Shown piece after piece: positions 13,267 through 40,258 of a stretch of DNA of 64,000 nt. The notes under the pieces are model-generated. The model had not been told where the DNA came from. It made no database searches and saw only the letters and a program-made list of their open reading frames with translations. The translations under genes and the position numbers were made by a program. The first letter of the stretch is position 1. Every line of letters begins with the position of its first letter. Source of the DNA: Candidatus Latescibacterota bacterium (GTDB lineage Bacteria > Latescibacterota > UBA2968); the NCBI GenBank assembly GCA_965204375.1, contig OZ241986.1:1152001-1216000 (forward strand), given 5' to 3'.

Positions 13267-15423
13267 ATGAAAATACGTATTCTTTTTTCTTTGTTATTTT
13301 GTAGTTCCCTTTTGGGAAGTATTTCCGAGGCGTCTGATTGGACACACTGGCGCGGTCCTATGCAAAATGGCGCTTCGCCGGAGACGGGGCTTATTTCTAC
13401 ATGGTCTCTGGAGGGCGAAAATCTGATCTGGCGTCGCGAGTTTATCGGCAGATCTACACCGATTATTGTAAATGGTCGGGTCTATGTTATCGGGCGAACC
13501 GGCAAAGACATAACCGAGCAGGAGCACATCGCGTGTTTTGATGCGGAAAAGGGCGATCTCATTTGGGAAAAAAAGTTCAATGTCTGGCACTCAACCATAA
13601 CCTTCAATCGTCTGGGATGGGCAAGCCTGGGGGCCGATGGCGAGACCGGTAATATTTACGCCCATCTCGTCAGTGGGTTATTGATCTGTTTTGATACCGA
13701 TGGCTATGTCCAGTGGCAGCGGTCTCTAACCGAAGAATTTAACCGATTCTCCGGTTATGGCGGGCGATTGCACACGCCCGTTGTCGATGGCGATCTGGTC
13801 ATCATCAGCATGGGCAATCGCGGATGGGCTGGCGCACCGCCTTCTCATCGGTATGTTGCCTTTAATAAACACACGGGTGAAACCGCGTGGATGGCTCGTC
13901 CGGGCGGCGGTGGGCAGGTTGATTTAACCGTTTACTCTACGCCTGTTGTCACGACAATTGACGGGCAGCGCGTGTTGGTTGCTGGCAATGGCAATGGCGG
14001 TATTTTTGCCTTCAAAGTCGCAACGGGCGAAAAAGTATGGGGTTTTCCATTCAGTAAGCGCGGCATCAACACTTCGCCTGTCGTGGCTGATAATCGCGTT
14101 TTTGTCGCACATAGCGAAGAAAATGTCGATAATACCTCTCTTGGTCGCGTTACATGTCTGGATGCGCGTACGGGCAAAGAAATCTGGCGACAAGACGGTA
14201 TGACCTCGGGCTATGCTTCGCCAGCGGTTCACGCGGGGCGCGTCTATGTGATCGACAATTCGGCCAATGTGCATTGTTTAGACGCCAAAACGGGAAAGCA
14301 ATATTGGGAACAAAATATCGGCACTGTGGGCAAGGGATCGCCGACCTGGGCCGATGGAAAACTCTATGTTACTGAGGTCAATGGCGGCTTCCAGATTCTC
14401 AAAACGAACAATATGGGCGCGGAAGTGCTCGACAAAAAGAAAATCGCAATGCCCGAAGGTGGGCATGCCGAGATCTACGGGTCAGTCGCTGTTGCGTATC
14501 GCCGCATCTATTTTGCGACCGAAGCCGGGTTGTTTTGTCTGGGCGATAAAAACGCGCGATTTGAAGTCACGCCTTCTCCTCATACAAAGCACGAAAGCGC
14601 GCCTTCGAGTGCCGAACCAGCATCTATTCTTTCTATTCCGGCTGAGGCGACCATACAACAGGGCGAGGTACTGCCCCTGCGGGCAGAGGCTTATGACGAG
14701 AAGGGGCGCTTGATCGGCAATGCCGACGCCGAGTGGTCGTTGAATGGCCTGGATGGAGAAATAAAGAATAATCAGTTTGTACCATCCCGACCGGGACAGG
14801 GCGGCTGGATCACGGCCAAACTGGGTGAATTAACCCGACAAACCTGGGTGCGCGTGGTGCCCGATGTGCCCTGGACAGAGGATTTTGAAAATGTCGAAGT
14901 CGGCACAAATCCATTGCACTGGGTGTGGGGGGGAAGGGGTTTTGCGGTGGAGGAAAAAGATGGCAACAAGGTTCTGGCAAAACCACCGGCTGCACGCGGC
15001 TTAGATCGCTCAAATCTCTATGTGGCGCCGTACAAACTCAGTGGCTATACTATTCAGGCCGATCTTATGGGTACGCAAAACAAGCGGCGTCGTCCCGATA
15101 TGGGTCTTATCGCGCATCGCTATATCCTCGATCTTCAAGGCATTCACCAGCGCCTCGAGATTCGGTCGTGGTCGTCGGATTTGCGTATGGCAAAACGCAT
15201 TGATTTCCACTGGGATATGGGGGTGTGGTACACCATGAAAATGAGAGTTGATATCGAAGGCGGCAAAGCTATCGTTCGGGGCAAAGTCTGGAAAAAAGGC
15301 GATCCCGAACCCGATGCGTGGAGTATTGAAGTAGAGGATCCCCTGCCGATAGAAGAGGGCAGCCCCGCGCTTTACGGCTATTCACCCGCCACGATTTACT
15401 ACGATAATGTGAAACTGTGGTAA
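13267..15423 (+). CDS. Exported PQQ-like (BamB-type) beta-propeller protein with extra C-terminal beta-sandwich domains
   Basis: Signal peptide, DWTHWRGP, repeated 'DAxTGKxxW' W-motifs, ~280 aa C-terminal extension. Confidence 0.85.
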   Translation: MKIRILFSLLFCSSLLGSISEASDWTHWRGPMQNGASPETGLISTWSLEGENLIWRREFIGRSTPIIVNGRVYVIGRTGKDITEQEHIACFDAEKGDLIWEKKFNVWHSTITFNRLGWASLGADGETGNIYAHLVSGLLICFDTDGYVQWQRSLTEEFNRFSGYGGRLHTPVVDGDLVIISMGNRGWAGAPPSHRYVAFNKHTGETAWMARPGGGGQVDLTVYSTPVVTTIDGQRVLVAGNGNGGIFAFKVATGEKVWGFPFSKRGINTSPVVADNRVFVAHSEENVDNTSLGRVTCLDARTGKEIWRQDGMTSGYASPAVHAGRVYVIDNSANVHCLDAKTGKQYWEQNIGTVGKGSPTWADGKLYVTEVNGGFQILKTNNMGAEVLDKKKIAMPEGGHAEIYGSVAVAYRRIYFATEAGLFCLGDKNARFEVTPSPHTKHESAPSSAEPASILSIPAEATIQQGEVLPLRAEAYDEKGRLIGNADAEWSLNGLDGEIKNNQFVPSRPGQGGWITAKLGELTRQTWVRVVPDVPWTEDFENVEVGTNPLHWVWGGRGFAVEEKDGNKVLAKPPAARGLDRSNLYVAPYKLSGYTIQADLMGTQNKRRRPDMGLIAHRYILDLQGIHQRLEIRSWSSDLRMAKRIDFHWDMGVWYTMKMRVDIEGGKAIVRGKVWKKGDPEPDAWSIEVEDPLPIEEGSPALYGYSPATIYYDNVKLW

Positions 15424-15455
15424 TCTTTATAACCCCTTACAGGTAAAGGAATAAA

Positions 15456-16883
15456 ATGAAATTGAAACGACTTTTTAGCGGATGTGTCATCGTTGGTTTG
15501 ATCGTATCGACTGGTATTGCTGAAGAGGTTATGTGGGGATTTACTCCAGATCGCAACCTCGTGTCAGACGCAAAAAATTTGCCGATGAACTGGAATGTAG
15601 AAACGGGTGAAAATATCGTCTGGAAAGCAGATCTCGGTTCGCAGTCCTACGCCGGTCCCATCAGGATTGGTGGGAAAATATTCATGGGCACAAATAACCA
15701 GATTGAGCGCAATCCCAAAGTTACGGGTGACAAGGGCGTGATCATGGCTTTTCAGGAATCCGATGGAAAATTTCTCTGGCAAGCAGCGCATCCCAAGCTG
15801 CCCGCGGGGCGCGTCAATGACTGGCCACAACAGGGCATTTGCTCCACGCCTTATATTCGCGGAGATCGGATGTATTATATCTCGAATCAATGTCGCGTGG
15901 TGAGTGCGGATACAGAGGGGTTTTTGGATGGGGAAAATGACGGTCCATATACCGGGGAAGAGGATACGAGCGACATCGGTGTGGATATTATCTGGGAATA
16001 CGACATGATGGAAGAACTGGATGTGTTCCCTCACAATTTGGCGACCTGTTCGCCCGTGGGGGCGGGCAATCTCCTGTTTGTCATCACCGCCAATGGTGTT
16101 GACGAGGGTCACATTGCCATCCCTTCACCTCTATCGCCCAGCTTTATTGCGGTCGATCTCAATACGGGGGAACTGGTATGGGAAAAAGCCTATCCGGGTG
16201 AAAGTATCTTGCACGGGCAGTGGTCCAATCCCGCTTATGGCGTTATCAATGGCAAGCCGCAGGTGATCTGCCCTGGGGGCGATGGCTGGGTTTATTCGCT
16301 GGAAGCCGAGACCGGGGACTTGATCTGGAAATTTGACTGCAATCCAAAAGACTCTGTGTGGGAATTGGGTGGACGGGGCACGCGCAATGCGATTATCTCC
16401 ACTCCAGTTATTTACGATAACAAGGTTTTTATCGGCGTTGGGCAAGATCCGGAGCACGGCGAGGGCATTGGTCATTTGTGGGCTATTGATGCAACGGGTA
16501 CAGGAGATGTGACGGGAAGCCATGCAGTTTGGCACTTTGGCAATGAAAATTACAACCGGACTATTTCTACGGTGGGCATCAGCGATGGCCTGCTCTATGC
16601 GGCAGATCTGAGTGGGTTTGTCTATTGTCTCGACGTAAAAACTGGCAAACAGCACTGGAAATACGATACATTTGCCGCGATATGGGGATCGCCTTTTGTC
16701 GCTGATGGGAAGGTATATATCGGCGATGAAGATGGCGATGTGGCGATTTTGAAAGCTGGAACACAATTTGAACTGATCAACGAAATCAACATGGGCAGTG
16801 CCGTATATACCACGCCTATTGCAAAAGATGGCATGCTCTACATTGGCACGCGCAATACGCTGTATGCGATTAAGGGCGAGTAG
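15456..16883 (+). CDS. Exported PQQ-like beta-propeller protein
   Basis: Signal peptide; repeats DLNTGELVW, EAETGDLIW, DVKTGKQHW. Confidence 0.85.
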   Translation: MKLKRLFSGCVIVGLIVSTGIAEEVMWGFTPDRNLVSDAKNLPMNWNVETGENIVWKADLGSQSYAGPIRIGGKIFMGTNNQIERNPKVTGDKGVIMAFQESDGKFLWQAAHPKLPAGRVNDWPQQGICSTPYIRGDRMYYISNQCRVVSADTEGFLDGENDGPYTGEEDTSDIGVDIIWEYDMMEELDVFPHNLATCSPVGAGNLLFVITANGVDEGHIAIPSPLSPSFIAVDLNTGELVWEKAYPGESILHGQWSNPAYGVINGKPQVICPGGDGWVYSLEAETGDLIWKFDCNPKDSVWELGGRGTRNAIISTPVIYDNKVFIGVGQDPEHGEGIGHLWAIDATGTGDVTGSHAVWHFGNENYNRTISTVGISDGLLYAADLSGFVYCLDVKTGKQHWKYDTFAAIWGSPFVADGKVYIGDEDGDVAILKAGTQFELINEINMGSAVYTTPIAKDGMLYIGTRNTLYAIKGE

Positions 16884-16896
16884 GAGAGGTCACAAT

Positions 16897-17985
16897 ATGG
16901 AAGTTCTGGCAACACCTATTGTCGATAAGGTCAAAGAAGCGCGCGATACCCTCGATGCCCATGTGCGAGATATGGTCGCCTGGCATTTTAATCCCACTAC
17001 GGGGTGTCCATTCTGGCTGGAATTTGCAGGGGAATTGGATTTTGATCCACGTCGAGAGATCGGTGGGTACAGTGATTTGAAATATCTCGGGCATTTCCAG
17101 GATGAATGGCTGCGCGGCGGTCCCGTGCGGCGATGGATCCCGAGGGGAAGCGAGGGGCAGCGGACTTATGTATTTGAAACGGGTGGCTCAACCGGTGTGC
17201 CCAAATATCGGATTAGTCAAAACGATTTTCAAATCGACTACGAGATGTTCAGTGAGCACCTTTCTGAAGAAACATTTCCAAAGGGTGCGGACTGGTTGAT
17301 GCTGGGACCCACAGGTCCCCGGCGATTGCGCCTGGCTGTCGAATATCTCTGTCAGATTCGCGGTGGGATTTGCTTTCTCGTGGATCTCGATCCCCGATGG
17401 GTCAACAAGCTGATCAAGCGCGGCGCCCTCCAGGAATTGGAACTCTACAAAGCCCATGTCATCGATCAGGCACTCACGATTCTGCGCGCCAATGACAATG
17501 TGAAATGCATGTTCACGACTCCCAAGCTTCTCGAAGAATTATGCGAAAAAATTTCTCTGCAAAAAGCCGGGATTAGCGGCATTTTCTGCGGGGGAACAGA
17601 GATGAACGCACAATTCAATCGCTTTGCGAGAGAAGAGCTTATCCCGGGCATTGATTTTGTTCCTACCTACGGCAATACCCTAATGGGACTGGCTTATTCC
17701 AAGCCGCTCGAATCCGGAGATAACTACGCGATTACGTATTATCCGCCCGTACCCCGCGCGTTTATCGAACTGGTAAAGCCGAACAATCCCGATGAAGTGG
17801 TCGATTACGACGAAGTCGGGCGCGTGATGCTGACGACGCTTACAAAAGAATTTTTTATGCCCCGCTTTCTCGAACGCGATGAGGCCGAACGCGCCAAACC
17901 GATTGAAGCCTATCCCTGGGATGGCGTGAGAAACCTGGGTCTGCTCTCTGAGTTGCAGGAATCCGTGGTCGTTGGGGTGTATTAA
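16897..17985 (+). CDS. EhpF/GriC-like adenylate-forming enzyme (aryl-carboxylate reductase adenylation subunit)
   Basis: WHF…TG.PFW, FDP, ETGGSTGVPK P-loop, PTGP, DLDPRWV, TTP, GGTE, YG.T, ERD and C-terminal GVY all match my recollection of EhpF-family motifs. RBS AGGAGAGG. Confidence 0.8.
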   Translation: MEVLATPIVDKVKEARDTLDAHVRDMVAWHFNPTTGCPFWLEFAGELDFDPRREIGGYSDLKYLGHFQDEWLRGGPVRRWIPRGSEGQRTYVFETGGSTGVPKYRISQNDFQIDYEMFSEHLSEETFPKGADWLMLGPTGPRRLRLAVEYLCQIRGGICFLVDLDPRWVNKLIKRGALQELELYKAHVIDQALTILRANDNVKCMFTTPKLLEELCEKISLQKAGISGIFCGGTEMNAQFNRFAREELIPGIDFVPTYGNTLMGLAYSKPLESGDNYAITYYPPVPRAFIELVKPNNPDEVVDYDEVGRVMLTTLTKEFFMPRFLERDEAERAKPIEAYPWDGVRNLGLLSELQESVVVGVY

Positions 17986-18004
17986 ATCGGGTGGATCGTA
18001 TCAC

Positions 18005-19144
18005 TCAAGGCAGTTCCACCTCACGGCAAAAGGTAGAAAAGGGCAACACGCGGGTGTTGTCTGTTGCGTTGCCAAAATCTTTTGTACCCAGGTGTACCTG
18101 GTAAAATCGCGGAATATCTGTTCGCTCTCTGAAGTACTTGCAGGCGGGCGAATTACCGCGCTCACCGGTTTTGCACTCGACGGCAAATTCAGCATATCCA
18201 TCGCGTAGAACGACAAAATCTACCTCGCGCTTGTCGGTATCTCGGATAAAGCGCAATTCCATGTCATATCCTTCCGTATCTTCGATATAGTGGCAGTACT
18301 TCAGTAAGTGTCCGGCCACCATGTTCTCAAACCGGGCACCGCGATCTGTTACGCGCGACCAGTCCCAGAAATACAGTTTTTTCTCCTTGCGCACAGCTCT
18401 GATCCTTTTCGCACCAAATGGTGGAATGCGATAGCACAGGTATAGCCTTTCAAAGATCGCGAGCCAGCGTTCGACGGTTTCGTGAGCCACTTGCAAGAGT
18501 TTGCTGAGGCTGTTGACCGAAAGCGGGGATCCCACACAGGCGGGCAGGTGAGATAGCAAGAGGTCTAACATGGATACCTCGCGCACATTTTCCAGATCGC
18601 GGAGGTCTTCATAGATGACTCTTGCGGAATGCTCGCGTAGCCACCTGCGGTGAAATCGCGTCTCCCCCCTGAGAAAAGGCTCCGGAAAACCGCCAAATCT
18701 GAGCAGTTGTGCCACGAGCGTGTTATCTGACTCCCGTCCGCATTCCATCAGCGTGAAGGGATGCAGGCGGTAGTAGTGATATCGCCCCTGCAAGGAGTCG
18801 CCGCCTTTGCGGTAGTAATCCAGCCGTGCCGAGCCAGTGACAATAAAAGAAACGGATGTCTTGTTTTTGTCGAATAGTCCTTTCATTAGATTTCGCCATT
18901 GTGCGTACTTGTGAATTTCATCGAAAATGATGCGGGTCTGTCCAGAAGGTAGTCGTCCCGCCAGAATGTCCTCGCGGTCGGCCAGTACATCCCAGTTCAG
19001 GTAGGCGGGTGATGACTCATTCTGATCTTGCCCCAACAGTGAGATTGCGAGTGTTGTTTTTCCAACCTGGCGCGGACCGCCGATGAATATCATTCTGTCT
19101 GCGATATCTGCTTCAATATGATCCGTGATGTAGCGGGGTTCCAT
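18005..19144 (-). CDS. AAA_14 + DUF4143 ATP-binding protein (ATPase with C-terminal PD-(D/E)XK-like domain)
   Basis: GPRQVGKTT, FDEIH, VTGSA, GGFPEP, KLYFWD, FENMV, EVDFV…ECK. Confidence 0.85.
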   Translation of the reverse strand: MEPRYITDHIEADIADRMIFIGGPRQVGKTTLAISLLGQDQNESSPAYLNWDVLADREDILAGRLPSGQTRIIFDEIHKYAQWRNLMKGLFDKNKTSVSFIVTGSARLDYYRKGGDSLQGRYHYYRLHPFTLMECGRESDNTLVAQLLRFGGFPEPFLRGETRFHRRWLREHSARVIYEDLRDLENVREVSMLDLLLSHLPACVGSPLSVNSLSKLLQVAHETVERWLAIFERLYLCYRIPPFGAKRIRAVRKEKKLYFWDWSRVTDRGARFENMVAGHLLKYCHYIEDTEGYDMELRFIRDTDKREVDFVVLRDGYAEFAVECKTGERGNSPACKYFRERTDIPRFYQVHLGTKDFGNATDNTRVLPFSTFCREVELP

Positions 19145-19165
19145 ACTTATTACCTTTCTTGCATG

Positions 19166-19233
19166 TCGTGAGTATTTTAGACTAAACCACAATATACTCG
19201 TGAGTATTTTAGAGTCAATATGAAAATACTCAC
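19166..19233 (-). promoter_or_regulatory. Sigma70-type promoter with overlapping operator-like repeats
   Basis: Minus strand TTGACT-N16-TATATT (19218-19191). TCGTGAGTATTTTAGA is repeated directly at 19166 and 19198, with an inverted core AAAATACTCAC at 19223. Confidence 0.6.
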
Positions 19234-19243
19234 ATTATTGCGC

Positions 19244-19272
19244 TTGCTTTTATTTGGGTGAAAAGCTACTTT
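19244..19272 (+). promoter_or_regulatory. Sigma70-type promoter candidate for the ALDH-onward part of the cluster
   Basis: TTGCTT-N17-TACTTT. Confidence 0.4.
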
Positions 19273-19385
19273 TTATGTTCTACAACGCAGTTTAAAACTA
19301 CACTTGTGCCTAATTTTATGACTATAAATCCCTTCCCAAAATGTTGCAGAGAGGCGATAATTAGTCTTTCAAAGAGGCGAGATAT

Positions 19386-20810
19386 ATGATTCACTTACCC
19401 ATTTTACGCGCGGGGGAACCGTACACGAGCTTGAGCGTTCAGGAAGTGTCGCATATTCAAACTGGCGAGCCACTCGTTCAGGTCAGTCAGGCAAACCGGG
19501 GGCTGGTAGCTAAAGACTTGAATGCAGCGGCGGCGAACAAACACGCGCTCGACAGGCTGAGTGTATCCGAACTCGTGGGCATAACCCGCGAAGCCGCGCG
19601 CTTATTTGCAGAAGCCGATTTGCCCATTGGCGATCATATCCAGACGCCCGATGATTATGTCAAACAGGTGTCTGGCACAACGGGTATGCCCGAAGCGCTC
19701 TGCCGCGCGAATATGGAAAAAATTCAGCTCGTATGCACGGAGATCGAAGCTGTTTTAGGAGGTCTCACGCGCGGGTTAGATCTCGCTGTGCTCGATGAGG
19801 GCTGGCACGATCAGGATGGTCGTTCTCTCAGCTATATTTGCCAGGCCGATGCCCTCGGGGCTATATTGCCGAGCAATTCACCGGGGGTGCACGCGCTGTG
19901 GGTTCCAGCCATACCACTCAAGGTACCACTCGTTCTAAAACCCGGACGCGAAGAGCCCTGGACGCCTTTCCGAATTGCACAGGCGTTTATAGAAGCGGGG
20001 TGCCCGCCAGAAGCGTTTGGGTTTTATCCCACAGATCACGGTGGTGCCACTGAAATTTTGCTTCGCTGCGGTCGCTCTATGCTCTTTGGGGGCGGGGCGA
20101 CGGTCGCGCCTTGGCTGAGCGATCCCCGCGTGGAAATTCACGGGCCTGGGCAGAGTAAGGTCATTATTGGCGAAGATGTGATAGACCGCTGGGAAGACTA
20201 TCTCGACATCGCGGTTGCTTCAATTACTGCAAATGGCGGTCGCTCCTGTATCAACGCGTCGGGGGTGTGGGTTCCCGCGCATGGTCGAGAAATTGCCGAA
20301 GCACTCGCAGAGCGATTGGCAAAAGTTGTCGGGAGACCTCTTGATGATCCAGAAGCGCAGATCGCGGCATTTACCAACCCCGCATTCGCCGATCAAATTT
20401 CGCTGGCTATAGATATCAACCTGAAAACGCCAGGGGCCGAAGAACTGACCGAGAAATTGCGCGGTGATCGGCTGGTCGAGATCGATGGGTTGAAATTCTT
20501 AAATCCCACAGTTGTCTGGTGTGACGATTTTGAACATCCTCTTGCAAATACCGAATATTTGTTCCCATACGCGAGCGTAGTCGAGGTTTCTCAGTCGGAA
20601 ATTTTGGACAAGATTGGACCAAGCCTTGTGGTGACAGCCATAACAGAAGACCGTGTATTTATCGATAAATTGCTCAATTCTCCCCATGTAGAAAGACTGA
20701 ATGTGGGTGCGATTCCCACGCATCAGATATCATGGGATCAACCACACGAGGGCAACTTGTTCGAGCACCTGTACCGGCAGCGCGCGCTGCAATGGGCGAA
20801 ACAGGCTTAG
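19386..20810 (+). CDS. ALDH-superfamily protein, GriD/EhpG-like acyl-AMP/thioester reductase
   Basis: LPSNSPG, VLKPG, catalytic Cys in NGGRSCINAS, EYLFP. HGPG stands where the canonical ELGG would be. Confidence 0.75.
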   Translation: MIHLPILRAGEPYTSLSVQEVSHIQTGEPLVQVSQANRGLVAKDLNAAAANKHALDRLSVSELVGITREAARLFAEADLPIGDHIQTPDDYVKQVSGTTGMPEALCRANMEKIQLVCTEIEAVLGGLTRGLDLAVLDEGWHDQDGRSLSYICQADALGAILPSNSPGVHALWVPAIPLKVPLVLKPGREEPWTPFRIAQAFIEAGCPPEAFGFYPTDHGGATEILLRCGRSMLFGGGATVAPWLSDPRVEIHGPGQSKVIIGEDVIDRWEDYLDIAVASITANGGRSCINASGVWVPAHGREIAEALAERLAKVVGRPLDDPEAQIAAFTNPAFADQISLAIDINLKTPGAEELTEKLRGDRLVEIDGLKFLNPTVVWCDDFEHPLANTEYLFPYASVVEVSQSEILDKIGPSLVVTAITEDRVFIDKLLNSPHVERLNVGAIPTHQISWDQPHEGNLFEHLYRQRALQWAKQA

Positions 20811-20813
20811 GAG

Positions 20814-21929: not shown

Positions 21930-22033
21930 TCCGCAGATGACGCAGATGGGCGCAGATGAAAGGCTTTTATGCACATACATGATGAAACAGGTAACAATGT
22001 AACCCTCTGTGTTCATCTGTGTTTATCTGTGGT
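21927..22033. repeat. Inverted pair of CRCAGAT ~9-nt repeat arrays
   Basis: tgatccgcagatgacgcagatgggcgcagatg (21927-21958) faces ctctgtgttcatctgtgtttatctgtgg (~22005-22032). Confidence 0.65.
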
Positions 22034-30993: not shown

Positions 30994-31005
30994 TTCTTAA
31001 TTCCT

Positions 31006-32298: not shown

Positions 32299-32319
32299 AA
32301 ACTTAACACGGGAGGGCAA

Positions 32320-32811
32320 ATGCCGACTTCTTCTTCTGGACTTACGTGGTTGATTTTTGCGTTGATGACTGTGGGCGCGTGGGGTTTGTACGGGATTTTT
32401 CTGCACACCGGACAGATCGCTATGGGCGATCCCGAAAATGGACGCTACAAAGCTTTTCTCTTTGTGGGCATTGCCTATCTTTTGACAGCCGTTATTGGAT
32501 CCCTCATTGTGCTGGCGGTCAACGGGTCGGACTGGTCATTCCCGACAATGGGGCTGACATGGTCCCTGCTGGCTGGTATTGTGGGAGCCATCGGTGCATT
32601 TGGCGTGCTCCTCGCCTTTGGGGCGAAGGGGACACCGCCCGTGGTTATGTCTATTGTTTTTGCTGGCGCGCCTATGGTCAATGCTATCGTCTCGCTCATT
32701 ATGCATCCGCCAGCAGGTGGGTGGGGTGGTTTGAACTGGCAATTTGTGCTGGGCATTATACTGGCTGCGCTGGGAGGGTGTCTGGTGACATTATTTAAAC
32801 CTTCGTCTTGA
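32320..32811 (+). CDS. DMT/EamA-like five-TM membrane protein
   Basis: Five hydrophobic helices, early WG motif, VMSIVFAGAP. Confidence 0.65.
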   Translation: MPTSSSGLTWLIFALMTVGAWGLYGIFLHTGQIAMGDPENGRYKAFLFVGIAYLLTAVIGSLIVLAVNGSDWSFPTMGLTWSLLAGIVGAIGAFGVLLAFGAKGTPPVVMSIVFAGAPMVNAIVSLIMHPPAGGWGGLNWQFVLGIILAALGGCLVTLFKPSS

Positions 32812-33263
32812 TGACGGATAGCACTATGCACAGTGAATTTCACACCACACACAGAGTGGCGTTTTCCGATACGGACATGGCCGGGATTGTACACTTTTCC
32901 CGGTTTTTTGTGTTTATGGAAGCAGCCGAGCACGCTTTCTTGCGCGCGTTGGGGACGAGTGTTTCAACAGAATGGGATGGAAATAAAATCGGATGGCCGC
33001 GATTGGAAGCGACATGTACATATCTCAGTCCAGCCTTCTTTGAAGATGTGCTGGATATTCATCTGAAGGTGATACGCAAAGGCACAAAATCGCTGACCTA
33101 TCGGTTTGATTTTTTTCGCGGAGAGACAGCTATTGCCAGCGGAGAATTGAGCACGGTATGTTGTATATGCAATCCCGGCGAAAAAATCAGGTCTATACCG
33201 ATTCCAGATTTTATTGCGGATCAGATCGCGGATGAAGCAGATGGCGCAGATAGACGCGGATGA
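32811..33263 (+). CDS. Acyl-CoA thioesterase, 4HBT/YbgC hotdog family
   Basis: RVAFSDTDMAGIVHFSRFF…E. Confidence 0.85.
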   Translation: MTDSTMHSEFHTTHRVAFSDTDMAGIVHFSRFFVFMEAAEHAFLRALGTSVSTEWDGNKIGWPRLEATCTYLSPAFFEDVLDIHLKVIRKGTKSLTYRFDFFRGETAIASGELSTVCCICNPGEKIRSIPIPDFIADQIADEADGADRRG

Positions 33264-33301
33264 AGATCGAGAATGTAGGGGCGCGGCCCCTGTGTCCGCC
33301 C
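33224..33301 (+). repeat. CRGAT repeat array inside the thioesterase 3' end, followed by a GTAG-type REP
   Basis: gatcgcggatgaagcagatggcgcagatagacgcggatga, then GTAGGGGCGCGGCCCCTGTGTCCGCCC at 33275-33301. Confidence 0.6.
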
Positions 33302-33321
33302 GAATATTTAAGAGGTTGTAA

Positions 33322-33975
33322 ATGGCACTAAAAGTTGAGCATCTTTCTAAACACTTCGGCGATGTAAATGTTCTACATGATATATCTTTTGAGATGGAGG
33401 CAGGACAATCGCTGAGTGTTATGGGACCTTCGGGTTCGGGAAAGAGTACCTTATTGCATGTGCTGGGTACGCTGGATCGACCATCTGAGGGAAGCCTCGA
33501 AATTGAGGGTCAGGATCCCTTTGCACTGTCTGAAATCGAACTCGCGCGGTTTAGAAATCAGGGTATTGGATTTGTATTTCAAGAGCACCATCTTTTGCCG
33601 CAATACTCGGTTTTGGAAAATGTTTTGATCCCGACGCTGGCATTTAAAAATGGCGATGCGCGAGAACGCGCCCGAGAGATTATTGATCGGGTGGGCTTAT
33701 CGCATCGCATTGAACACCGGCCCGCTGAATTATCTGGCGGCGAGCGACAACGCACAGCTGTTGCTCGTGCCCTCATCAATTCCCCGGCATTGCTCTTGTG
33801 CGACGAACCAACGGGTAGCCTGGATGGGGCGCGGGCAGAGGAAATAGCCGATCTGCTATTTGAATTGCACGAGCGGGAAAATAATATCCTGATCTGCGCG
33901 ACGCACAGCTCGGCACTGGCTCGTCGCTTTGAGCGGCGGTTTGATCTGCGGGAGGGGATGTGCGTCGAAGTCTGA
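33322..33975 (+). CDS. ABC transporter ATP-binding subunit (LolD/MacB-like)
   Basis: GPSGSGKST, GFVFQEHHLLP, LSGGERQR, DEPTGSLD. Confidence 0.9.
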   Translation: MALKVEHLSKHFGDVNVLHDISFEMEAGQSLSVMGPSGSGKSTLLHVLGTLDRPSEGSLEIEGQDPFALSEIELARFRNQGIGFVFQEHHLLPQYSVLENVLIPTLAFKNGDARERAREIIDRVGLSHRIEHRPAELSGGERQRTAVARALINSPALLLCDEPTGSLDGARAEEIADLLFELHERENNILICATHSSALARRFERRFDLREGMCVEV

Positions 33976-36900
33976 TCTATTTCTGGCGAATTAATCTGGC
34001 TGTTATGCTCGGCGTGGCAGTGGCGACGGCTGTTCTGACAGGTGCTTTGATCGTGGGCGATTCCGTGCGCGGCAGCTTGAGAGATTTGTCGTTGAGTCGT
34101 CTGGGCAAAATTGACCACGCTCTGGTATCCGAGCGATTTTTTCGCGCAAGTCTGGAGCGCGATCTCGAGCGTGAACTCGACACTCAGGATGTTGTATCGG
34201 CCATTAGCCTGGGCGGAACAGCTGTTCACGCAAGATCGAATACGCGGGCTTCTCGCGTTCAAATTCAGGGTATTGACAATCGCTTTGCAAATCTGTTTGA
34301 TCAAATACTGCCCGAGTTGACGATCGAGGGAATATTTCCATCGGTTGTCGTCAATGAATCCCTCCAAAAAGAACTCAATGCACAGATTGGCGATGCCATT
34401 CTGCTGTCTTTTGAACAATCAGATGATATTCACCGAGAATCGCTATTTGGACGTGCTGATGATGCGGTTCAAACAATTCGACTGACGCTCGCAGGCGTAC
34501 TTCCCGATAGGGGAATGGGACGCTTTGGCCTTTTCGCCCGCCAGACCGTTCCGCTCAATGCATACCTGTCGCTGCCGGTTTTGCAAAAAGCGTTGGGTCA
34601 AAGAGGCCGCGTGAATACATTGCTGGTGTCGAGTGATCCGGATGCAGACGTTCAGGAAACACTTTCCCGCGTTGTAACACTTGATGATCTCGGTATTGTC
34701 ATCCGCCGAGAGACTGATTATTTCGCTATTGAGAGCACGCAGTTTATTCTCAAATCCCATATTGCGGAAACTATTCAACAAGTATCTGCCGAGTTAAACG
34801 CGCCCCATATGTCCATTCTCACCTATCTGGCGAATACCACACAGGTGGGGGAGAGAGAACTGCCCTATTCCACAATTTCTGCGTTAGATGTTGGGAATCT
34901 GGGGGCTTTTCAGATTGTAGAGGGATCACTACAACTCGGGGAAGACGATATTTTGCTGAATACCTGGGCGGCTGAGGATTTGAACGCACAGGTTGGCGAT
35001 GAAGTGAAAGTTGCCTATTACGAAGTCGCGCCTGGGGAAGAACTCCTTACCCGTTGGGCAATATTTCAGCTCAAAGGCATTGTGGCAATGGCGGGATTGG
35101 GCGCAGATGAAAAGTTGTCTCCCGATTATCCTGGCCTGGGTGATGCAAATAATATGGCTGACTGGGAAGCACCTTTCCCCATAGACCTGAGTCGTGTTCG
35201 CCCCGAGGATGAAGATTATTGGGATACCTATCGCGACGCGCCAAAAGCCTTTGTGTCTGCCACGACTGGACAGCGATTGTGGCAAAGTCGATTTGGCGTA
35301 TTAACCGCCGTACGCATTGGAGCTATTGCGGGAGAGGATATCGAAACAACGGCGAAGCGATTTGAGAATCATTTGCTAAAAAACATTGCGCCCGAATCGG
35401 TTGGTCTGATATTTCAGCCCGTCAAAAAGCAGGGCCTGGCCGCTTCTACGGGGGCGACGGATTTTAGCGGGTTATTTATTGCATTTAGTCAATTCCTGAT
35501 TATTTCTGCAGCACTCCTCGTCGGATTATTATTTCGCCTGAGTGTGGAGCAGCGAGGCAGAGAAGTCGGGATGCGGATGGTGTCGGGATATACGGGAAAA
35601 AAAATCCGCCGCCTCTTTAGCCATGAGGGCTTTGTATTGGCCGGTGTGGGCGGCATCACAGGGTTGATGGGCGGTGTTTTCTATGCCTATTTGATTACGG
35701 TGGGATTGCGTACTTATTGGGTGGGTGCGGTTGGGACGTCTGATCTCGCGCTCCACATTCACGCATCGAGTTTGTTGCTGGGCTATGCCATTTCACTAAT
35801 CGTGATCCTGCTGGCAATCTGGCTCACGCTCCGCCGTTTGGGCACGATTTCTGTTCGCGCATTATTATCGGGTATTACGGAAGTGGTGCGTGCAAAGCCG
35901 CGTACGAAATGGTATGCCCTGGGTAGCCTCATCCTCGCTGCACTCAGTCTGGGGGGCGCAACGGTGGATCCATCAACAGGTACAGGCTTGTTTTTTCTTA
36001 GTGGCGCGCTGTGGATGGTTTCGGGATTGTGCTTTCTCTCGCTCTGGTTTAGACGCGAGCATCGCGCCATAAGAGAGGGTATTATTGGGATGGGGGTGCA
36101 AAATAGCAAGCGGCAGCCCGCGCGAAGTTTGCTTTGTGCTTCACTCATCGGTTGTGCGTGTTTTGTCATTGTTGCAGTAGGCGCGAATAGGCGAACTGAT
36201 TTGACCCAAAATATCGCGCAGGACAAAGCTTCTGGCACGGGTGGCTTTGCCCTCATCGCCGAAGTTGATGTGCCGATTTATCAAGATTTCAATTCAAAAG
36301 AAGGGCAATTTGAACTCGGGTTCTCGCAAGCAGATGCAGAACTTCTGAATCAGGCTCGGTTCATCCCGCTGCGCGTTTTGCCAGGTGAAGATGCGAGTTG
36401 TCTCAATCTTTACAAGCCCGAAAGCCCACGCGTTTTGGGTGTTCCCGAAGCTCTGCGTCAGCGAGGTGGTTTTACATTTCAGCAAATGAGTACCGAAGCG
36501 GAAAATCCCTGGGCTCTATTATCCGAGGATCTGGGCGCGGATGTGATTCCGGCAATTGGAGATTACAATTCGGCTATGTGGATCTTACACAAGCAATTGG
36601 GCGATGATATTGTGTTGCGAAATGAAATAGGGGAGACTGTCAGGCTGAGACTGGTGGGCTTGTTAAAGACGAGTATTTTTCAAAGTGAATTGCTGATTTC
36701 CGAAGACAATTTTTTGCGGCACTTTCCCGACCAGAGTGGGTATGGCACTTTTCTTATTGAAACACAACAACCCGTTCAACTTACCGCGCTTGTGGAAAGC
36801 AGATTAAAAGACGTCGGGTTAGACGCCGTATCTACAACGCAAAAACTCGCGCATTTTCAGGAGGTCGAAAACACGTATCTCTCCACCTTTCAAACACTGG

Positions 36901-37256
36901 GGGGATTGGGCCTGCTGTTGGGCACGCTCGGATTGGGTATTGTTCTATTGAGAAATGTGATTGAAAGGCGCGGTGAATTAGCCGTTTTGCGCGCCTTTGG
37001 ATTTCGCCGCACTGTGCTGTCGCGCATGCTGCTCGCGGAGAATGGGTTTTTAATGTTCGTGGGGCTGGCTATCGGTAGTGTCTCCGCGCTTATTGCAGTA
37101 GCACCCCATGTCATGAACTATGGTGCGTTAATCCCCTGGGGATCGCTGGCTCTCACGCTTGTCGTCATATACGGCGCGGGTCTCATCGCAAGCGCAATAG
37201 CTGTTTTCTTCGCCCTGCGAGCACCACTATTGCCCGCGTTGAAACAGGAGGTGTGA
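33960..37256 (+). CDS. FtsX/MacB-type (type VII) ABC permease, tandem-duplicated, large periplasmic domains
   Basis: 1098 aa; two 'EQR/ERRxExxxxRxxG' FtsX motifs. Confidence 0.85.
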   Translation: MRRSLIYFWRINLAVMLGVAVATAVLTGALIVGDSVRGSLRDLSLSRLGKIDHALVSERFFRASLERDLERELDTQDVVSAISLGGTAVHARSNTRASRVQIQGIDNRFANLFDQILPELTIEGIFPSVVVNESLQKELNAQIGDAILLSFEQSDDIHRESLFGRADDAVQTIRLTLAGVLPDRGMGRFGLFARQTVPLNAYLSLPVLQKALGQRGRVNTLLVSSDPDADVQETLSRVVTLDDLGIVIRRETDYFAIESTQFILKSHIAETIQQVSAELNAPHMSILTYLANTTQVGERELPYSTISALDVGNLGAFQIVEGSLQLGEDDILLNTWAAEDLNAQVGDEVKVAYYEVAPGEELLTRWAIFQLKGIVAMAGLGADEKLSPDYPGLGDANNMADWEAPFPIDLSRVRPEDEDYWDTYRDAPKAFVSATTGQRLWQSRFGVLTAVRIGAIAGEDIETTAKRFENHLLKNIAPESVGLIFQPVKKQGLAASTGATDFSGLFIAFSQFLIISAALLVGLLFRLSVEQRGREVGMRMVSGYTGKKIRRLFSHEGFVLAGVGGITGLMGGVFYAYLITVGLRTYWVGAVGTSDLALHIHASSLLLGYAISLIVILLAIWLTLRRLGTISVRALLSGITEVVRAKPRTKWYALGSLILAALSLGGATVDPSTGTGLFFLSGALWMVSGLCFLSLWFRREHRAIREGIIGMGVQNSKRQPARSLLCASLIGCACFVIVAVGANRRTDLTQNIAQDKASGTGGFALIAEVDVPIYQDFNSKEGQFELGFSQADAELLNQARFIPLRVLPGEDASCLNLYKPESPRVLGVPEALRQRGGFTFQQMSTEAENPWALLSEDLGADVIPAIGDYNSAMWILHKQLGDDIVLRNEIGETVRLRLVGLLKTSIFQSELLISEDNFLRHFPDQSGYGTFLIETQQPVQLTALVESRLKDVGLDAVSTTQKLAHFQEVENTYLSTFQTLGGLGLLLGTLGLGIVLLRNVIERRGELAVLRAFGFRRTVLSRMLLAENGFLMFVGLAIGSVSALIAVAPHVMNYGALIPWGSLALTLVVIYGAGLIASAIAVFFALRAPLLPALKQEV

Positions 37257-37262: not shown

Positions 37263-38798
37263 TTAATTTATCTTCTTGAGTGCGAGTTCATAACACGCTG
37301 CTTCTCGATCATTTCGCACGAGGAGATAGGGTGCGGCAAGTGTGGGTGCGTTCCAGGTATGGCTGCTTAGAGCGGGGAAGCGCGCGCGTTCATTGTGTTC
37401 ATCTGGTGAGGCATCGACGAGCACGACATCGCCCGATTCGGTCTGGATGAGCAAGAGGTCATCTACGAGAATGAGTTGCCCGTGCCCGTAGCGCCCTCGC
37501 TTCCATTTGCGTTGCCCATCCGCCAGATCCAAACACACGAGGACGCCGTCGTCCAGTCCGTAAATATATCCGTCTTTATAGACCATATTGGCAAATTTGG
37601 CTTTTAGACGAGGGCTTTTCCATATCCGTTCGGCAGTAAATGCATCCCGACTATTTTTTGCAATTTGAATCAATTCACTACCAATGCCATAACCTGTTGA
37701 TACAAAGATGCTGTCTCCGGGTAGTGGAATGGGTTGGGCAACGTGTTGCGTCATCCCGCCAGTCCAGGGATATTCCCATAGCAATTTACCGGAAATTGGA
37801 TCGTGACCCGCGACTTGCCCTCTGTTAAAAATGAGTATTTGATCCATTCCAGCTATGGAGGCCAAACTGGGCGAACTATGACCCGCTCTTGTACGGCCAG
37901 CTCCCCAAATAACAGCACCGGTTTCTTTGTCATAAGCCATCAGCGATTGCTCGTTTCGTCCGCCCGGACTCACGATCACTTTGTCGTCTAAAATGAGGGG
38001 TGAGCCGCTCATGCCCCATTCTTTAACGCGCGCATCGGTTTCTGTCACGGTATCGCGCGACCAGATTTCTCGACCGGTTTCCAAATCGAGACAGGTGAGA
38101 ATGCCGGTTGCGCCAAAAGAATAGACGCGGTTGCCCGATATGGTTGGCGTGGCTCGCGGACCAATTCCGGCAATCGCGGTTTCATATCGCGCACGCGCGC
38201 TGTGACGCCATTTCTCTTTTCCGGTCAAGAGGTCGTAACAGGCCACGGTTTCGTCTTCGCCTTTTTGCTCTTGAGTTACGGCAGTGCGGCCAACAACGGC
38301 AAAGGCGGAAAAGGCTTCACCGACGGGTACGCGCCAGAGTAATTTGGGGGGATTTTGAGCCCAATCGGATTCCAGTTTTATTCCTTCGAGGATGGCGTTG
38401 CGATGTGGACCCAAAAATTGAGGGTAGTCTATATCGGGACCATCTGAAGGCTGTCCCGCCACGGATATGGATGTAACAGAAGACCAGCGCCACCCTATCT
38501 TGGGAGCCAAATCGCCTGTAAAGCCGCGAATTTGAAATAGTGAAACTATCAGGATAATCAGGAGTATAAGAATACTTAGACCCCGTACGCGAATTTTTCG
38601 ACTCGTTCGGGAAAAAGCAAAGAACCAGAGACAGAGCAAAAGAGAGCCGATTGCGCAGACCAATATTGTCGGCATAACTTGCATCTGGCGGTTGGGCCTT
38701 TCGGGAATCCATATTACCGATAATACAATGAGCATTAACACTCCGATCGCGACCGCGGGCCACCATCGAATGGATTTGGGATAAAGAGGTGCAGGCAT
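37263..38798 (-). CDS. Membrane-anchored PQQ-like beta-propeller protein
   Basis: Three N-terminal TM helices, then DYPQFLGPHRN, GPRATP, WNAP. Confidence 0.85.
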   Translation of the reverse strand: MPAPLYPKSIRWWPAVAIGVLMLIVLSVIWIPERPNRQMQVMPTILVCAIGSLLLCLWFFAFSRTSRKIRVRGLSILILLIILIVSLFQIRGFTGDLAPKIGWRWSSVTSISVAGQPSDGPDIDYPQFLGPHRNAILEGIKLESDWAQNPPKLLWRVPVGEAFSAFAVVGRTAVTQEQKGEDETVACYDLLTGKEKWRHSARARYETAIAGIGPRATPTISGNRVYSFGATGILTCLDLETGREIWSRDTVTETDARVKEWGMSGSPLILDDKVIVSPGGRNEQSLMAYDKETGAVIWGAGRTRAGHSSPSLASIAGMDQILIFNRGQVAGHDPISGKLLWEYPWTGGMTQHVAQPIPLPGDSIFVSTGYGIGSELIQIAKNSRDAFTAERIWKSPRLKAKFANMVYKDGYIYGLDDGVLVCLDLADGQRKWKRGRYGHGQLILVDDLLLIQTESGDVVLVDASPDEHNERARFPALSSHTWNAPTLAAPYLLVRNDREAACYELALKKIN

Positions 38799-38899: not shown

Positions 38900-38944
38900 G
38901 ATTCTCTGAATTGCAAAATATCACATCACAGAAAGGAGTTTGAG

Positions 38945-40258
38945 ATGAAGAAATGGCTTTTGATTTTGATGGGGTTCTGTTTGATTCCAATTCTGGTTCA
39001 GGCAAAACACCATGCGGCGAAGGAAACACACAATTGGCCCCATTTGCGGGGACCAAATGCAAACGGACTCGTGGATAAAGGCAATCCTCCCGTGGAATGG
39101 AGCGAAGATACCAATATCCGCTGGAAAGTAAAAATTCCGGGTACGGGTCACGCCACGCCTATTGTATGGGGCGATAAAATTTTTGTTCAGACAGCGGTTA
39201 AGACCGACAAAACCGTAGAAGTTGTCCAGAATGCCAGAAAGCCTTTGCCCACGCATATTTATAATTTTATGTTGATTGCACTGGATCGCAAAAGCGGCGA
39301 TGTGGTGTGGGAAAAGACCGTGCGCGAGGCACTACCCCACGAAGGGACTCATAAAACGGCTAATTATGCTGGCTCATCGGGTGTTACAGACGGCGAGCAT
39401 CTGTACGCATTTTACGGTTCTTGGGGGCTTTACTGTTTTGACTTCGACGGCAATTTGAAATGGGATAAGGACCTGGGCGATATGAGAGTTGCAGGCTCTT
39501 TTGGAGAAGGCTCATCGCCGACTATTCACGGCAATACGCTGATTATCAACTGGGACCACCAGGGCGATTCGTTTATTGTCGCGCTGGATAAACGCACGGG
39601 TGAGGAAATCTGGCGCACGGCGCGACGGGAAAGAACGACTTGGACCACACCGATCGTTGTCGAACACAATGGCACGCAACAGATTATTGTGGGCGCGAGC
39701 AGAAAGACCCGAAGTTACGATCTCAAAACTGGCGATGTCTTGTGGGAATGCGCGGGACTGGGGTCAAATGTCATTCCCACCGCCCTCTATGCCGATGGTA
39801 TCGTCTATGTTACAAGCGGTCATAGAGACCCGGCCATGCTGGCGATTTCACTCGACAAAGCGAAAGGCGATATTACGGGTACTGATGCCGTTCTGTGGAC
39901 TGTTACTGGCAACAAAACCCCTTATGTTTCCTCGCCTCTTCTTTCCGGAAACAATATCTATAGCATGAGAAAAACTACTAATATTTTGTTCTGTTTCAAT
40001 GCCAAAACAGGCGAAACAGTTTTCGGTCCCGAGCGACTCCAGGGCCTGAATCGCATATACTCTCCGCTGGTTGGCACGGGTGACCGCATTTACCTCGCCG
40101 GGCTGGCTGGTACGACATTTGTGATCAAGAACGGCAGCGAATTTGAAGTGCTCGCAAAAAACAAGCTCGACGAGGGCACGGGTGCATCTCCAGTTATCGC
40201 TGGTGACGAGTTGTATTTGCGCGGCAACGAACACCTCTATTGTATTGCGGCAAATTGA
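38945..40258 (+). CDS. Exported PQQ-like beta-propeller protein
   Basis: Signal peptide, NWPHLRGP, FGEGSSP, WTTP, YVSSP. Confidence 0.85.
   Translation: MKKWLLILMGFCLIPILVQAKHHAAKETHNWPHLRGPNANGLVDKGNPPVEWSEDTNIRWKVKIPGTGHATPIVWGDKIFVQTAVKTDKTVEVVQNARKPLPTHIYNFMLIALDRKSGDVVWEKTVREALPHEGTHKTANYAGSSGVTDGEHLYAFYGSWGLYCFDFDGNLKWDKDLGDMRVAGSFGEGSSPTIHGNTLIINWDHQGDSFIVALDKRTGEEIWRTARRERTTWTTPIVVEHNGTQQIIVGASRKTRSYDLKTGDVLWECAGLGSNVIPTALYADGIVYVTSGHRDPAMLAISLDKAKGDITGTDAVLWTVTGNKTPYVSSPLLSGNNIYSMRKTTNILFCFNAKTGETVFGPERLQGLNRIYSPLVGTGDRIYLAGLAGTTFVIKNGSEFEVLAKNKLDEGTGASPVIAGDELYLRGNEHLYCIAAN

Follow-up and report, generated by a model that had tools for sequence, protein, structure and literature searches.

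A conserved two-module gene cluster with secreted beta-propellers and no classical biosynthetic core in a Candidatus Latescibacterota bacterium

The stretch of DNA analysed here, 64,000 nucleotides of contig OZ241986.1 from a Candidatus Latescibacterota bacterium (GCA_965204375.1) and referred to below as the window, contains a cluster of enzyme, transport, and beta-propeller genes that is conserved in several bacterial phyla. An open reading frame (ORF) map, combined with Pfam and NCBIfam scans, places 16 co-oriented genes on the + strand between 13267 and 37256 of the window, followed by two further propeller genes to 40258, just as a first-pass annotation of this DNA had described them. The end given there, 40258, is too short, as a TAXI-TRAP importer extends the cluster to 43249. 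Two modules are present. The first (M1) consists of the propeller genes prop1 and prop2, an EhpF-like adenylase, a protein of the aldehyde dehydrogenase (ALDH) fold, an iron-containing alcohol dehydrogenase (Fe-ADH), prop3, and a radical S-adenosylmethionine (rSAM) enzyme. The second (M2) consists of an accessory PaaK-like ligase, a halogenase, a GT4 glycosyltransferase, a membrane protein with five hydrophobic segments, a thioesterase, and an ATP-binding cassette (ABC) ATPase of the Lol/MacB type with its FtsX permease. Neighbouring genes overlap by 4 bases (prop3 and rSAM; membrane protein and thioesterase) or 16 bases (ATPase and FtsX permease), or are separated by 3 bases (ALDH-fold protein and Fe-ADH; TonB-dependent receptor, TBDR, and PaaK-like ligase). 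The core enzymes, the adenylase included, are each present in one copy in the genome.

Apart from one assignment discussed below, the family calls made for these genes in the first-pass annotation were upheld by Pfam, NCBIfam, and PDB sequence searches. The same is true of its statement that no core for a polyketide synthase (PKS), non-ribosomal peptide synthetase (NRPS), or terpene pathway is visible, since Pfam scans of the window ORFs of ≥90 aa found no PKS, NRPS, terpene, or carrier-protein families. In a compact version of the cluster (genome G029) there are no more than ~80 bases between neighbouring tblastn matches, therefore there is no space for a conserved precursor-peptide gene.

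The cluster is kept in at least six phyla: Latescibacterota, Poribacteria, Acidobacteriota, KSB1, Gemmatimonadota, and Planctomycetota. Scanning one genome per species with the halogenase alignment gave at least 578 confirmed relatives among at least 600 matched stretches, and the best 80 of these relatives were compared as loci: 37 from Poribacteria, 14 from Planctomycetota, 12 from Acidobacteriota, nine from Latescibacterota, two from Gemmatimonadota, one from KSB1, one from a 'Deltaproteobacteria' metagenome-assembled genome (MAG), and four unlabelled. Neighbours at ≥40 % identity were counted up to 10 kb from the halogenase, and both the length of the flanks and the ends of contigs restrict these counts. 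The rSAM enzyme was found at 52 of the 80 loci, the PaaK-like ligase, adjoining the halogenase, at 45, prop3 at 43, Fe-ADH and the TAXI binding protein at 42 each, and GT4, following the halogenase, at 27. The other genes were the thioesterase (24), the ABC ATPase (22), the FtsX permease, TBDR, and prop4 (19 each), the membrane protein (18), the ALDH-fold protein (16), and the adenylase (9). When 40-kb regions of 10 relatives in the host order were compared, seven held M1 and M2 together in a shared order: adenylase, ALDH-fold protein, Fe-ADH, prop3, rSAM, (prop4, TBDR), PaaK-like ligase, halogenase, GT4, membrane protein, thioesterase, ATPase, and FtsX permease. The remaining three, all of one genus (G001, G011, and G019), keep both halves on the same chromosome, with the adenylase and the halogenase ~2.0, 1.6, and 0.34 Mb apart. 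An arrangement that recurs in different phyla far exceeds what chance would produce.

Genome-wide, the two modules co-occur even when they are unlinked. In 151 sampled Latescibacterota, 83 carry the adenylase and 81 the halogenase; both are present in 81, the adenylase only in two (MAGs that are 84 % and 86 % complete), the halogenase only in none, and neither in 68. All of the carriers belong to the class of the window. In 151 sampled Acidobacteriota, both are present in 33, the adenylase only in four, the halogenase only in one, and neither in 113; these tallies include one unpublished genome with the adenylase, the halogenase, and a PQQ_2 match (G210), the omission of which shifts counts by one. 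The adenylase is present in 28 of 151 sampled Planctomycetota. Five genomes in which the halogenase stands alone (Thalassoglobus neptunius KOR42, three planctomycete MAGs, and one poribacterium) each carry one copy of the adenylase, the ALDH-like protein, the rSAM enzyme, and prop2. Thalassoglobus neptunius KOR42 and two of the planctomycete MAGs have these genes dispersed on different contigs; in the third, a Gemmatales MAG, and in the poribacterium, M1 is intact and the halogenase is elsewhere. The genes are therefore co-conserved in other genomes, as the first-pass annotation had proposed to check, both in synteny across the host order and phyla and in the genome-wide co-occurrence of adenylase and halogenase.

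In a halogenase tree of 68 rows, representing 67 of the 80 loci after 13 with a halogenase alignment of ≤350 residues were dropped, the phylum labels need 5 changes, against a minimum of 4 and a mean of 25.2 for shuffled labels, and all 37 Poribacteria fall together with 97 % support, from which mostly vertical descent is concluded. Protein searches returned at least 8,000 candidate homologues for each of the adenylase and the halogenase, and between about a fifth and a half of the genomes carry the adenylase in the three phyla sampled (83, 37, and 28 of 151). Mostly vertical descent and near fixation in some genera are not what is usually seen of a 'secondary metabolite' cluster with a halogenase, and suggest a physiological role. 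As it has no PKS, NRPS, or ribosomally synthesized and post-translationally modified peptide (RiPP) core, the cluster would tend to be missed by standard genome mining.

Table 1. Genes of the cluster and of its insertions, with their positions in the window and the matches on which each assignment is based
Feature	Positions	Strand	Match
prop1, exported PQQ_2 beta-propeller, 718 aa, extra C-terminal part of ~300 aa	13267-15423	+	PF13360 124 bits
prop2, exported propeller, best conserved of the six	15456-16883	+	PF13360 83.6 bits
EhpF-like adenylase, ANL N-terminal domain only, 362 aa	16897-17985	+	PDB EhpF 3l2k/3hgu
AAA_14/DUF4143 ATPase, insertion outside the system	18005-19192	-	Pfam
ALDH-fold protein, read as reductase partner of the adenylase	19386-20810	+	PF00171 58.8 bits vs cut-off 23
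Fe-ADH	20814-21929	+	PF00465 155 bits, PF25137 131 bits
prop3, exported 8-blade-type propeller	21969-23114	+	PF13570 206.9 bits vs cut-off 133; PF13360 152 bits
HemN-like (class C type) rSAM enzyme	23111-24457	+	PF04055, HemN_C
prop4, propeller, accessory pair with TBDR	24489-25730	+	
TBDR	25780-27903	+	TIGR01783 236.2 bits vs cut-off 223.5
PaaK-like acyl-CoA ligase, accessory	27907-29175	+	PDB PaaK 2y4o 198.6 bits
ParE-like toxin and antitoxin, insertion	29254-29738	+	PF24732 38.9 bits vs cut-off 24.4
Predicted FADH2-dependent halogenase, CndH/PltA/CmlS type, 414 aa	29749-30993	+	PDB matches
GT4 glycosyltransferase	31006-32298	+	PF00534 105.7 bits, PF13439
163-aa membrane protein, five hydrophobic segments	32320-32811	+	no Pfam or NCBIfam match
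YbgC/4HBT-type thioesterase	32808-33263	+	PF13279, PF03061
LolD-like ABC ATPase	33322-33975	+	PF00005
FtsX permease, 1098 aa, double-FtsX and MacB periplasmic domain	33960-37256	+	PF02687, PF12704
prop5, membrane-anchored N-terminus	37263-38798	-	PF13360 135 bits
prop6, signal peptide	38945-40258	+	PF13360 77.5 bits
TAXI-TRAP importer, binding protein and fused DctQM permease	40330-43249	+	TIGR02122 266 bits, TIGR02123 561 bits, both above cut-offs

In M1, residues 11-362 of the 362-residue adenylase align with residues 13-366 of the 366 of EhpF (E 5e-44) in a PDB sequence search. The match to PF00501 is partial only and the protein is without the C-terminal ANL domain. Its phosphate-binding loop, T95-G-G-x-T-G-x-P-K103, has T95, G96, G97, T99, G100, P102, and K103 invariant in 22 sequences, and its best 120 database relatives, which include Calditrichia, Poribacteria, KSB1, and Acidobacteria records, are 72-90 % identical. 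Open frames of 833-835 aa in one genus raised the possibility of an adenylase-reductase fusion; this was rejected, as the two genes are in different frames at loci L119 and L121. In the ALDH-fold protein, Cys C288 and the oxyanion Asn N164 are invariant in 15 sequences (motif positions assigned by eye), and an invariant H252-G-x-G-x-S-K takes the place of ELGGK, replacing the general-base Glu of hydrolytic ALDHs with His. The replacement fits a non-hydrolytic, reductive use, without proving it, and the protein is read as a putative acyl-adenylate reductase with a GriD/EhpG-like role. Of 41 genomes of relatives in the host order, 36 have an orthologue of it at E ≤ 1e-200, and in one more the orthologue is broken at a contig end.

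The Fe-ADH scores below every NCBIfam equivalog cut-off. Likewise, the rSAM enzyme, which carries CxxxCxxC, is below cut-off for HutW (184.9 vs 400 bits), HemN (181.5 vs 325), and HemW (169.6 vs 205); its best PDB match is HemN (1olt, E 4e-31) and its second the methyltransferase NocN (E 9e-25). It is thus HemN-like, yet a member of none of the HemN, HutW, and HemW functions. A putative conversion of an acid to an aldehyde and on to an alcohol, as suggested in the first-pass annotation, fits the EhpF match, the Cys/Asn/His pattern of the ALDH-fold protein, and the adjoining Fe-ADH. The label 'aromatic' given there to the substrate is drawn from relatives only.

The flavoprotein of M2 is predicted to be a halogenase of the CndH/PltA/CmlS type. 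Its PDB matches include 8zop (225 bits) and CndH (187 bits), solved members spanning 185-225 bits, and it scores 224 bits against the CmlS NCBIfam model, the cut-off of which is 900. In 12 sequences from several phyla the GxGxxG FAD motif (G11, G13, and G16), K72, the series F301..P304..S307..G309, and W217, W219, I221, and P222 of W217-F-W-Y-I-P222 are invariant; the WxWxIP motif defines the flavin-dependent halogenase family. Counted by hand, K72 aligns with residue 76 of CndH (3e1t), which is presumably the catalytic Lys. Among the best 120 relatives, identity is 65-88 %.

There are weaker matches of this flavoprotein to QhpG (136.5 bits), LodB (121.9 bits), GoxB (82.3 bits), and PDB 7ctq, a peptidyl tryptophan dihydroxylase (34.8 bits). 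On their strength, it and the rSAM enzyme might be supposed to modify a propeller residue into a protein-derived quinone, in the manner of QhpG/QhpD or LodB. This is hardly credible, as the halogenase matches are far higher (224-225 bits), the QhpG score is below its own cut-off (240), and the Lys and WxWxIP specific to halogenases do not vary. In addition, the Sec-type signals mean that the propellers would leave the cytoplasm unfolded, and the rSAM enzyme is HemN-like, with no SPASM-type family among its matches. Based on the scores and motifs, the identity of the flavoprotein as a QhpG/LodB-type maturase was rejected.

The scores of the PaaK-like ligase against NCBIfam PaaK models are below the cut-offs (261 vs 700 and 230 vs 646), with FlxY at 160 bits, and the thioesterase is below that of TIGR00051 (59.7 vs 68.7 bits). 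The 163-aa membrane protein, five hydrophobic segments of which are seen by eye, is 65-85 % identical across phyla with many invariant residues. It had been called 'DMT', which is left unconfirmed: the protein has no Pfam match, even at E 10, and no NCBIfam match, and aligning it by hhalign to six EamA domains from this genome gave no significant result (probability 1.3 %, E 0.039, 127 aligned columns). The ATPase and permease are assigned from sequence to the type VII ABC transporters (Lol/MacB type), the ATPase scoring 244 bits against LolD (cut-off 308) and 148.6 bits against DevA of heterocyst glycolipid export.

These transport genes could alternatively be arranged into the making of an envelope glycolipid, in which a lipid-like acid would be reduced to an alcohol, glycosylated by GT4 at the membrane, flipped by the membrane protein, extracted by the ABC transporter, and delivered to the outer membrane by the propellers. 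The nearness of the ATPase to LolD, and after it to DevA, a permease with MacB_PCD and two FtsX domains, and near-universal presence within genera with mostly vertical descent, which suits a structural component, all speak for such a product. So does the text of a preprint survey in which BrtI, exporter of the halogenated glycolipid bartoloside, is a frequent best match in 'Halo_AMP' clusters, considered below (Loureiro et al., bioRxiv 10.64898/2026.08.03.742642). However, the EhpF and PaaK relatives use aryl or small acids, there are no fatty-acid or polyketide enzymes in the cluster, and the importers would be left unexplained. Flavin halogenases also need an activated carbon, either aromatic or enolisable. 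A glycolipid is therefore considered unlikely, if worth keeping in mind.

All six propellers of the cluster have a signal-like or membrane-anchor N-terminus. In orthologues of prop1, prop2, and prop3 from several phyla, signal-like N-termini are present in 39 of 40 rows, the 40th (a prop2 row, L050) being cut at a contig start. The prop1 orthologues are 41-59 % identical and occupy the equivalent place in Acidobacteriota, Gemmatales, and Poribacteria; a hydrophobic N-terminus followed by a conserved W..WRG is seen in all eight of those listed. For prop2, identity across phyla is 44-74 % and many polar residues are invariant, for example in a GQDPEHGEG loop. When its alignment was compared with the PDB in a profile search, only the last two blades matched generic propeller repeats and the conserved N-terminal 370 residues matched nothing. 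The position of prop3 is always between Fe-ADH and rSAM, and all 20 of its listed orthologues have a signal-like N-terminus. It passes the Pfam model Beta-prop_ACSF4 (Table 1), described as the beta-propeller of the beta-alanine-activating enzyme, which possibly reflects an old link of adenylases to this type of propeller. Of the remaining propellers, prop5 is present at five and prop6 at seven of the 80 loci, and prop6 is syntenic in the sister family. Judged by sequence, the cluster propellers are specific orthologues rather than a loose family.

None of them reaches the cut-off for either the PQQ dehydrogenases or BamB. Against the PQQ-dependent alcohol dehydrogenases of TIGR03075 (cut-off 480), prop2 scores 43.1 and prop3 88.8 bits, and against BamB of TIGR03300 (cut-off 285.2), 65.3 and 189.6 bits. 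No canonical PQQ alcohol dehydrogenase was found in the genome, where the best score is 36.8 bits against the same cut-off of 480. A search of the genome for PqqC gave no match; as the control also matched none of 14 reference genomes, absence is not shown by this. The genome has 11 PQQ_2 proteins, six in the cluster and five outside, which is fewer than the 'large PQQ-like propeller family' of the first-pass annotation would imply. Three of the five outside paralogues adjoin a sulfatase (PF00884), near 1101154, 2686830, and 4566324 of G000:C1 (L130, L131, and L132), hinting that some propellers may serve the breakdown of sulfated glycans; because tblastn finds ~165 sulfatase-like loci in the genome, the enrichment is no more than modest. 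Beside one propeller paralogue, at G000:C1:4624110-4625351 (L133:7110-8351, - strand), is a protein with ankyrin repeats (Ank_2, 383 bits).

Propeller numbers follow the presence of the cluster in two phyla. The first-pass annotation had named the lack of any such relation as an outcome that would tell against a cofactor, and this outcome was not obtained. With 17 candidates scored per genome in 113 genomes of the host class, the median number of strong PQQ_2 matches is 8 (range 4-16) in adenylase-positive genomes and 1 in negative ones, none of which exceeds 10, the count of an 81 %-complete MAG. Within genera, positive and negative genomes differ in the same direction in all four contrasts (4.5/0, 9/1, 11/2, and 8.2/3.5). 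Full counts, in which distinct proteins were grouped by hand from coordinates, are ~12-22 propeller proteins in five positive genomes and 0-2 in five negative genomes. In Acidobacteriota, scored in the same way, 36 of the 37 genomes with the adenylase and 7 of the 114 without it have a strong match (E ≤ 1e-25), a tally that includes G210 and a second unpublished genome, without the adenylase and with PQQ_2 (G185), the omission of which shifts the count by one. First-look PQQ_2 candidates number 322, 234, and 159 in three adenylase-positive Acidobacteriota (G271, G205, and G243). The 'acido-empty-quinoprotein' family (TIGR04528) was tried as the propeller family served and rejected: it is over cut-off in eight genomes, two of them adenylase-positive. 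With a threshold of E ≤ 1e-40, 23 of 37 positive and 20 of 114 negative Acidobacteriota have a match, the sample again including G210, and relatives of this family are distributed independently of the cluster.

In line with the first-pass annotation, and by analogy with PQQ, the product might be a prosthetic group or obligatory ligand of secreted PQQ_2-type propellers in organisms without PQQ. The numerical relationship just described, which includes paralogues outside the cluster, would be accounted for in this way, as would the invariant polar residues of prop2, which resemble an active or binding site. A receptor of the siderophore subfamily could re-import such a molecule, and the genome is without a canonical PQQ alcohol dehydrogenase. 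Yet only five propellers lie outside the cluster here, the propellers are nearer to cofactor-less BamB or designer-propeller templates than to quinoproteins, the distribution of the 'acido-empty-quinoprotein' family proper is not that of the cluster, and shared ecology could produce the correlation. On balance the idea is quite doubtful. If true, a diffusible halogenated, glycosylated cofactor or ligand would serve a secreted BamB-like propeller family, an independently arisen PQQ-like economy kept in Latescibacterota, Poribacteria, Acidobacteriota, Planctomycetota, and others without canonical quinoproteins; the odds are well against it.

The TAXI-TRAP genes are syntenic in the sister family of the host, and the TAXI binding protein is directly 3′ of the halogenase at 33 of the 37 Poribacteria loci. 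At 11 loci, under eight other taxon labels, an SSF symporter (PF00474; nearest to PanF, PutP, and MctP) is in the TAXI-TRAP position, accompanied at five of them by a DUF3311 subunit. Since the symporter replaces TAXI-TRAP in other taxa, an importer, predicted to be for an organic anion, is a conserved feature that is filled by unrelated transporters. In contrast, prop4 and TBDR are an accessory pair, missing inside the cluster of two genomes (G029 and G021).

In another reading, with no purpose-made product, an environmental (aryl) acid, or a compound released outside the cell by the propellers, might be taken up and converted or detoxified. A conserved importer with non-orthologous displacement, a TonB receptor, a PaaK-like ligase and thioesterase as in aryl-acid catabolism, and the degradative neighbourhoods of the three sulfatase-adjoining propeller paralogues are what would be expected of such a system. 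A halogenase, GT4, rSAM enzyme, and exporter are not catabolic tools, however, no ring-cleavage or beta-oxidation genes are present, and with so many sulfatase-like loci the adjacency is only modestly surprising. Uptake for conversion alone is therefore improbable.

The explanation preferred here, with a probability of roughly 40 %, is a mostly vertically inherited pathway of two modules with its own transport, which makes one small molecule and hands the product to dedicated secreted propellers. Family-level gene identities, key catalytic motifs, synteny, genome-wide co-occurrence, the export signals of the propellers, and the relation of propeller numbers to the cluster are observations. The chemistry and the sequence of its steps, the kind of acid used, and the role of the propellers are inferred, as follows. 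An organic acid would enter through TAXI-TRAP, or the SSF symporter in other phyla, with the TonB receptor, where present, aiding passage of the outer membrane. The PaaK-like ligase would form its CoA thioester, an electron-rich carbon of which would be halogenated by the halogenase, whose solved relatives are of the type that acts on carrier-tethered substrates, and the 4HBT thioesterase would free the halogenated acid. The EhpF-like adenylase may then form the acyl-adenylate, to be reduced to the aldehyde by the ALDH-fold partner via its conserved Cys, and Fe-ADH may convert the aldehyde to the alcohol. A carbon would be added or rearranged by the HemN-like rSAM enzyme and the product glycosylated by GT4. 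The five-segment membrane protein and the Lol/MacB-type ABC transporter would carry it from the inner membrane to the periplasm, where prop1-prop6 would bind it or process it further.

Several observations weigh against this proposal. The PaaK-like ligase is beside the halogenase at none of the 12 acidobacterial and none of the 14 planctomycete loci, so the first steps are not universal as written. Neither a flavin reductase gene nor a carrier-protein gene is found in the cluster. No enzyme name gives the substrate, because all of the enzymes are below NCBIfam equivalog cut-offs, and the importer and TonB receptor suit a catabolic or salvage reading equally. The link with propeller numbers, besides being based, in the larger searches, on 17 scored candidates per genome, is partly trivial because the cluster itself holds five to six propellers; many Acidobacteriota typically have 3-6 strong PQQ_2 matches, no more than the cluster's own. 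Related genomes are not independent in this correlation, which shared ecology could also yield. There is a weak hint of expression, in that contigs from four metatranscriptome libraries (three studies) cover 30, 30, 29, and 17 of the 30 bins of 16800-36799, although these contigs, one of which is 31.8 kb, may be DNA carry-over. The 13 bins of 30 without cover in run X18 prove nothing.

Two insertions interrupt the cluster in the window. The AAA_14/DUF4143 gene is present in one of the 10 relatives and at none of the 80 loci, and in contigs of a related strain (one run) this stretch is replaced by a different, longer insert. The 587-base toxin-antitoxin stretch is replaced by 39 other bases in contigs from three runs, and the toxin is at none of the 80 loci. 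Both are therefore strain-variable insertions that are not part of the system. The intergenic spots concerned, 17984-19362 and 29168-29756, seem to be insertion-prone. Upstream, at 10307-13061 (- strand), are genes for a DUF6785/DUF6784 membrane protein and a PhyH-type dioxygenase, which are beside the cluster within the genus (G001 and G017) and at none of the 80 loci elsewhere at ≥40 % identity. Immediately after the TRAP genes, 43240-48184 (- strand) encodes a heparinase II/III-like protein (DUF4962 and Hepar_II_III_C), an enolase-superfamily enzyme, and a sulfatase, and is probably a separate unit for glycan degradation.

No characterised pathway was matched in the PDB, the NCBIfam equivalogs, or the literature searched, in which no paper was found joining this gene set, nor EhpF with a halogenase, nor any on 8zop. 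To this extent the first-pass annotation, which knew of no such pathway, still stands, although a class with a fitting gene list has been described in a preprint, to which we return below. The adenylase and its neighbour resemble GriC/GriD (grixazone) and EhpF/EhpG (D-alanylgriseoluteic acid) in that an ANL enzyme without its C-terminal domain adjoins an ALDH-fold protein, EhpG being taken here as the reductase partner of EhpF. In the former pair, GriC, an AMP-binding protein, makes an acyl-AMP that is reduced by GriD (PMC10179220). Unlike in those systems, the pair is followed here by Fe-ADH and lies amid secreted propellers, with no phenazine or 3,4-AHBA genes, and it occurs in Latescibacterota, Poribacteria, Acidobacteriota, and Planctomycetota. 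The ALDH-fold protein is likened to GriD and EhpG by its fold and position.

With CndH, PltA, Bmp2, and CmlS the halogenase shares the FAD motif, WxWxIP, and the aligned Lys. At 414 aa, it lacks the extension that CndH (512 aa) and CmlS (591 aa) have at the C-terminus. Halogenases of this type act on tethered substrates, and there is no carrier protein, NRPS, or PKS near that of the cluster. The ABC transporter resembles those of the MacB, Lol, and DevBCA type in its LolD-like ATPase, FtsX domains, and MacB periplasmic core domain. It differs from them in its single 1098-aa double-FtsX chain and in having no membrane-fusion or TolC gene in the cluster, and it scores below the LolD and LolCE cut-offs. 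The PQQ system (pqqA-E, PqqU, and the quinoproteins) may be compared by analogy, having an rSAM enzyme, a TonB receptor, and periplasmic propellers that vary with the pathway; here there is no PqqA-like peptide, the propellers score ≤88.8 bits against 480, and the enzymes are entirely different.

The closest parallel is the 'Halo_AMP' pseudoclass, defined by a halogenase with an AMP-binding enzyme in sponge and seawater metagenomes. As given in the text of the preprint, its clusters often carry PQQ-like domains, rSAM enzymes, glycosyltransferases, thioesterases, TonB receptors, and toxin-antitoxin genes, with no MIBiG match and no product given to these architectures (Loureiro et al., bioRxiv 10.64898/2026.08.03.742642). 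Both of the defining enzymes are found together in the present cluster, judged by their presence and not by the authors' detection rule, and the gene list fits in a comparison with the text of the survey, the figures and supplements of which may show the same architecture. What is new in relation to the survey is the division into two modules, their genome-wide co-occurrence, the presence of the cluster in phylum-wide samples of genomes picked without regard to habitat, mostly vertical descent, importer displacement, and the propeller correlation. Through this cluster, the unexplained secreted PQQ-like propellers of little-studied, mostly uncultured phyla gain a concrete and testable partner, and a cultured and harmless carrier is available in Thalassoglobus neptunius KOR42, with its adenylase, ALDH-like protein, rSAM enzyme, prop2, and halogenase. 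Set against known systems, this is a deeply conserved orphan pathway, a biosynthetic cluster without a classical core, that is unusual in its dedicated secreted propellers and its near-housekeeping inheritance.

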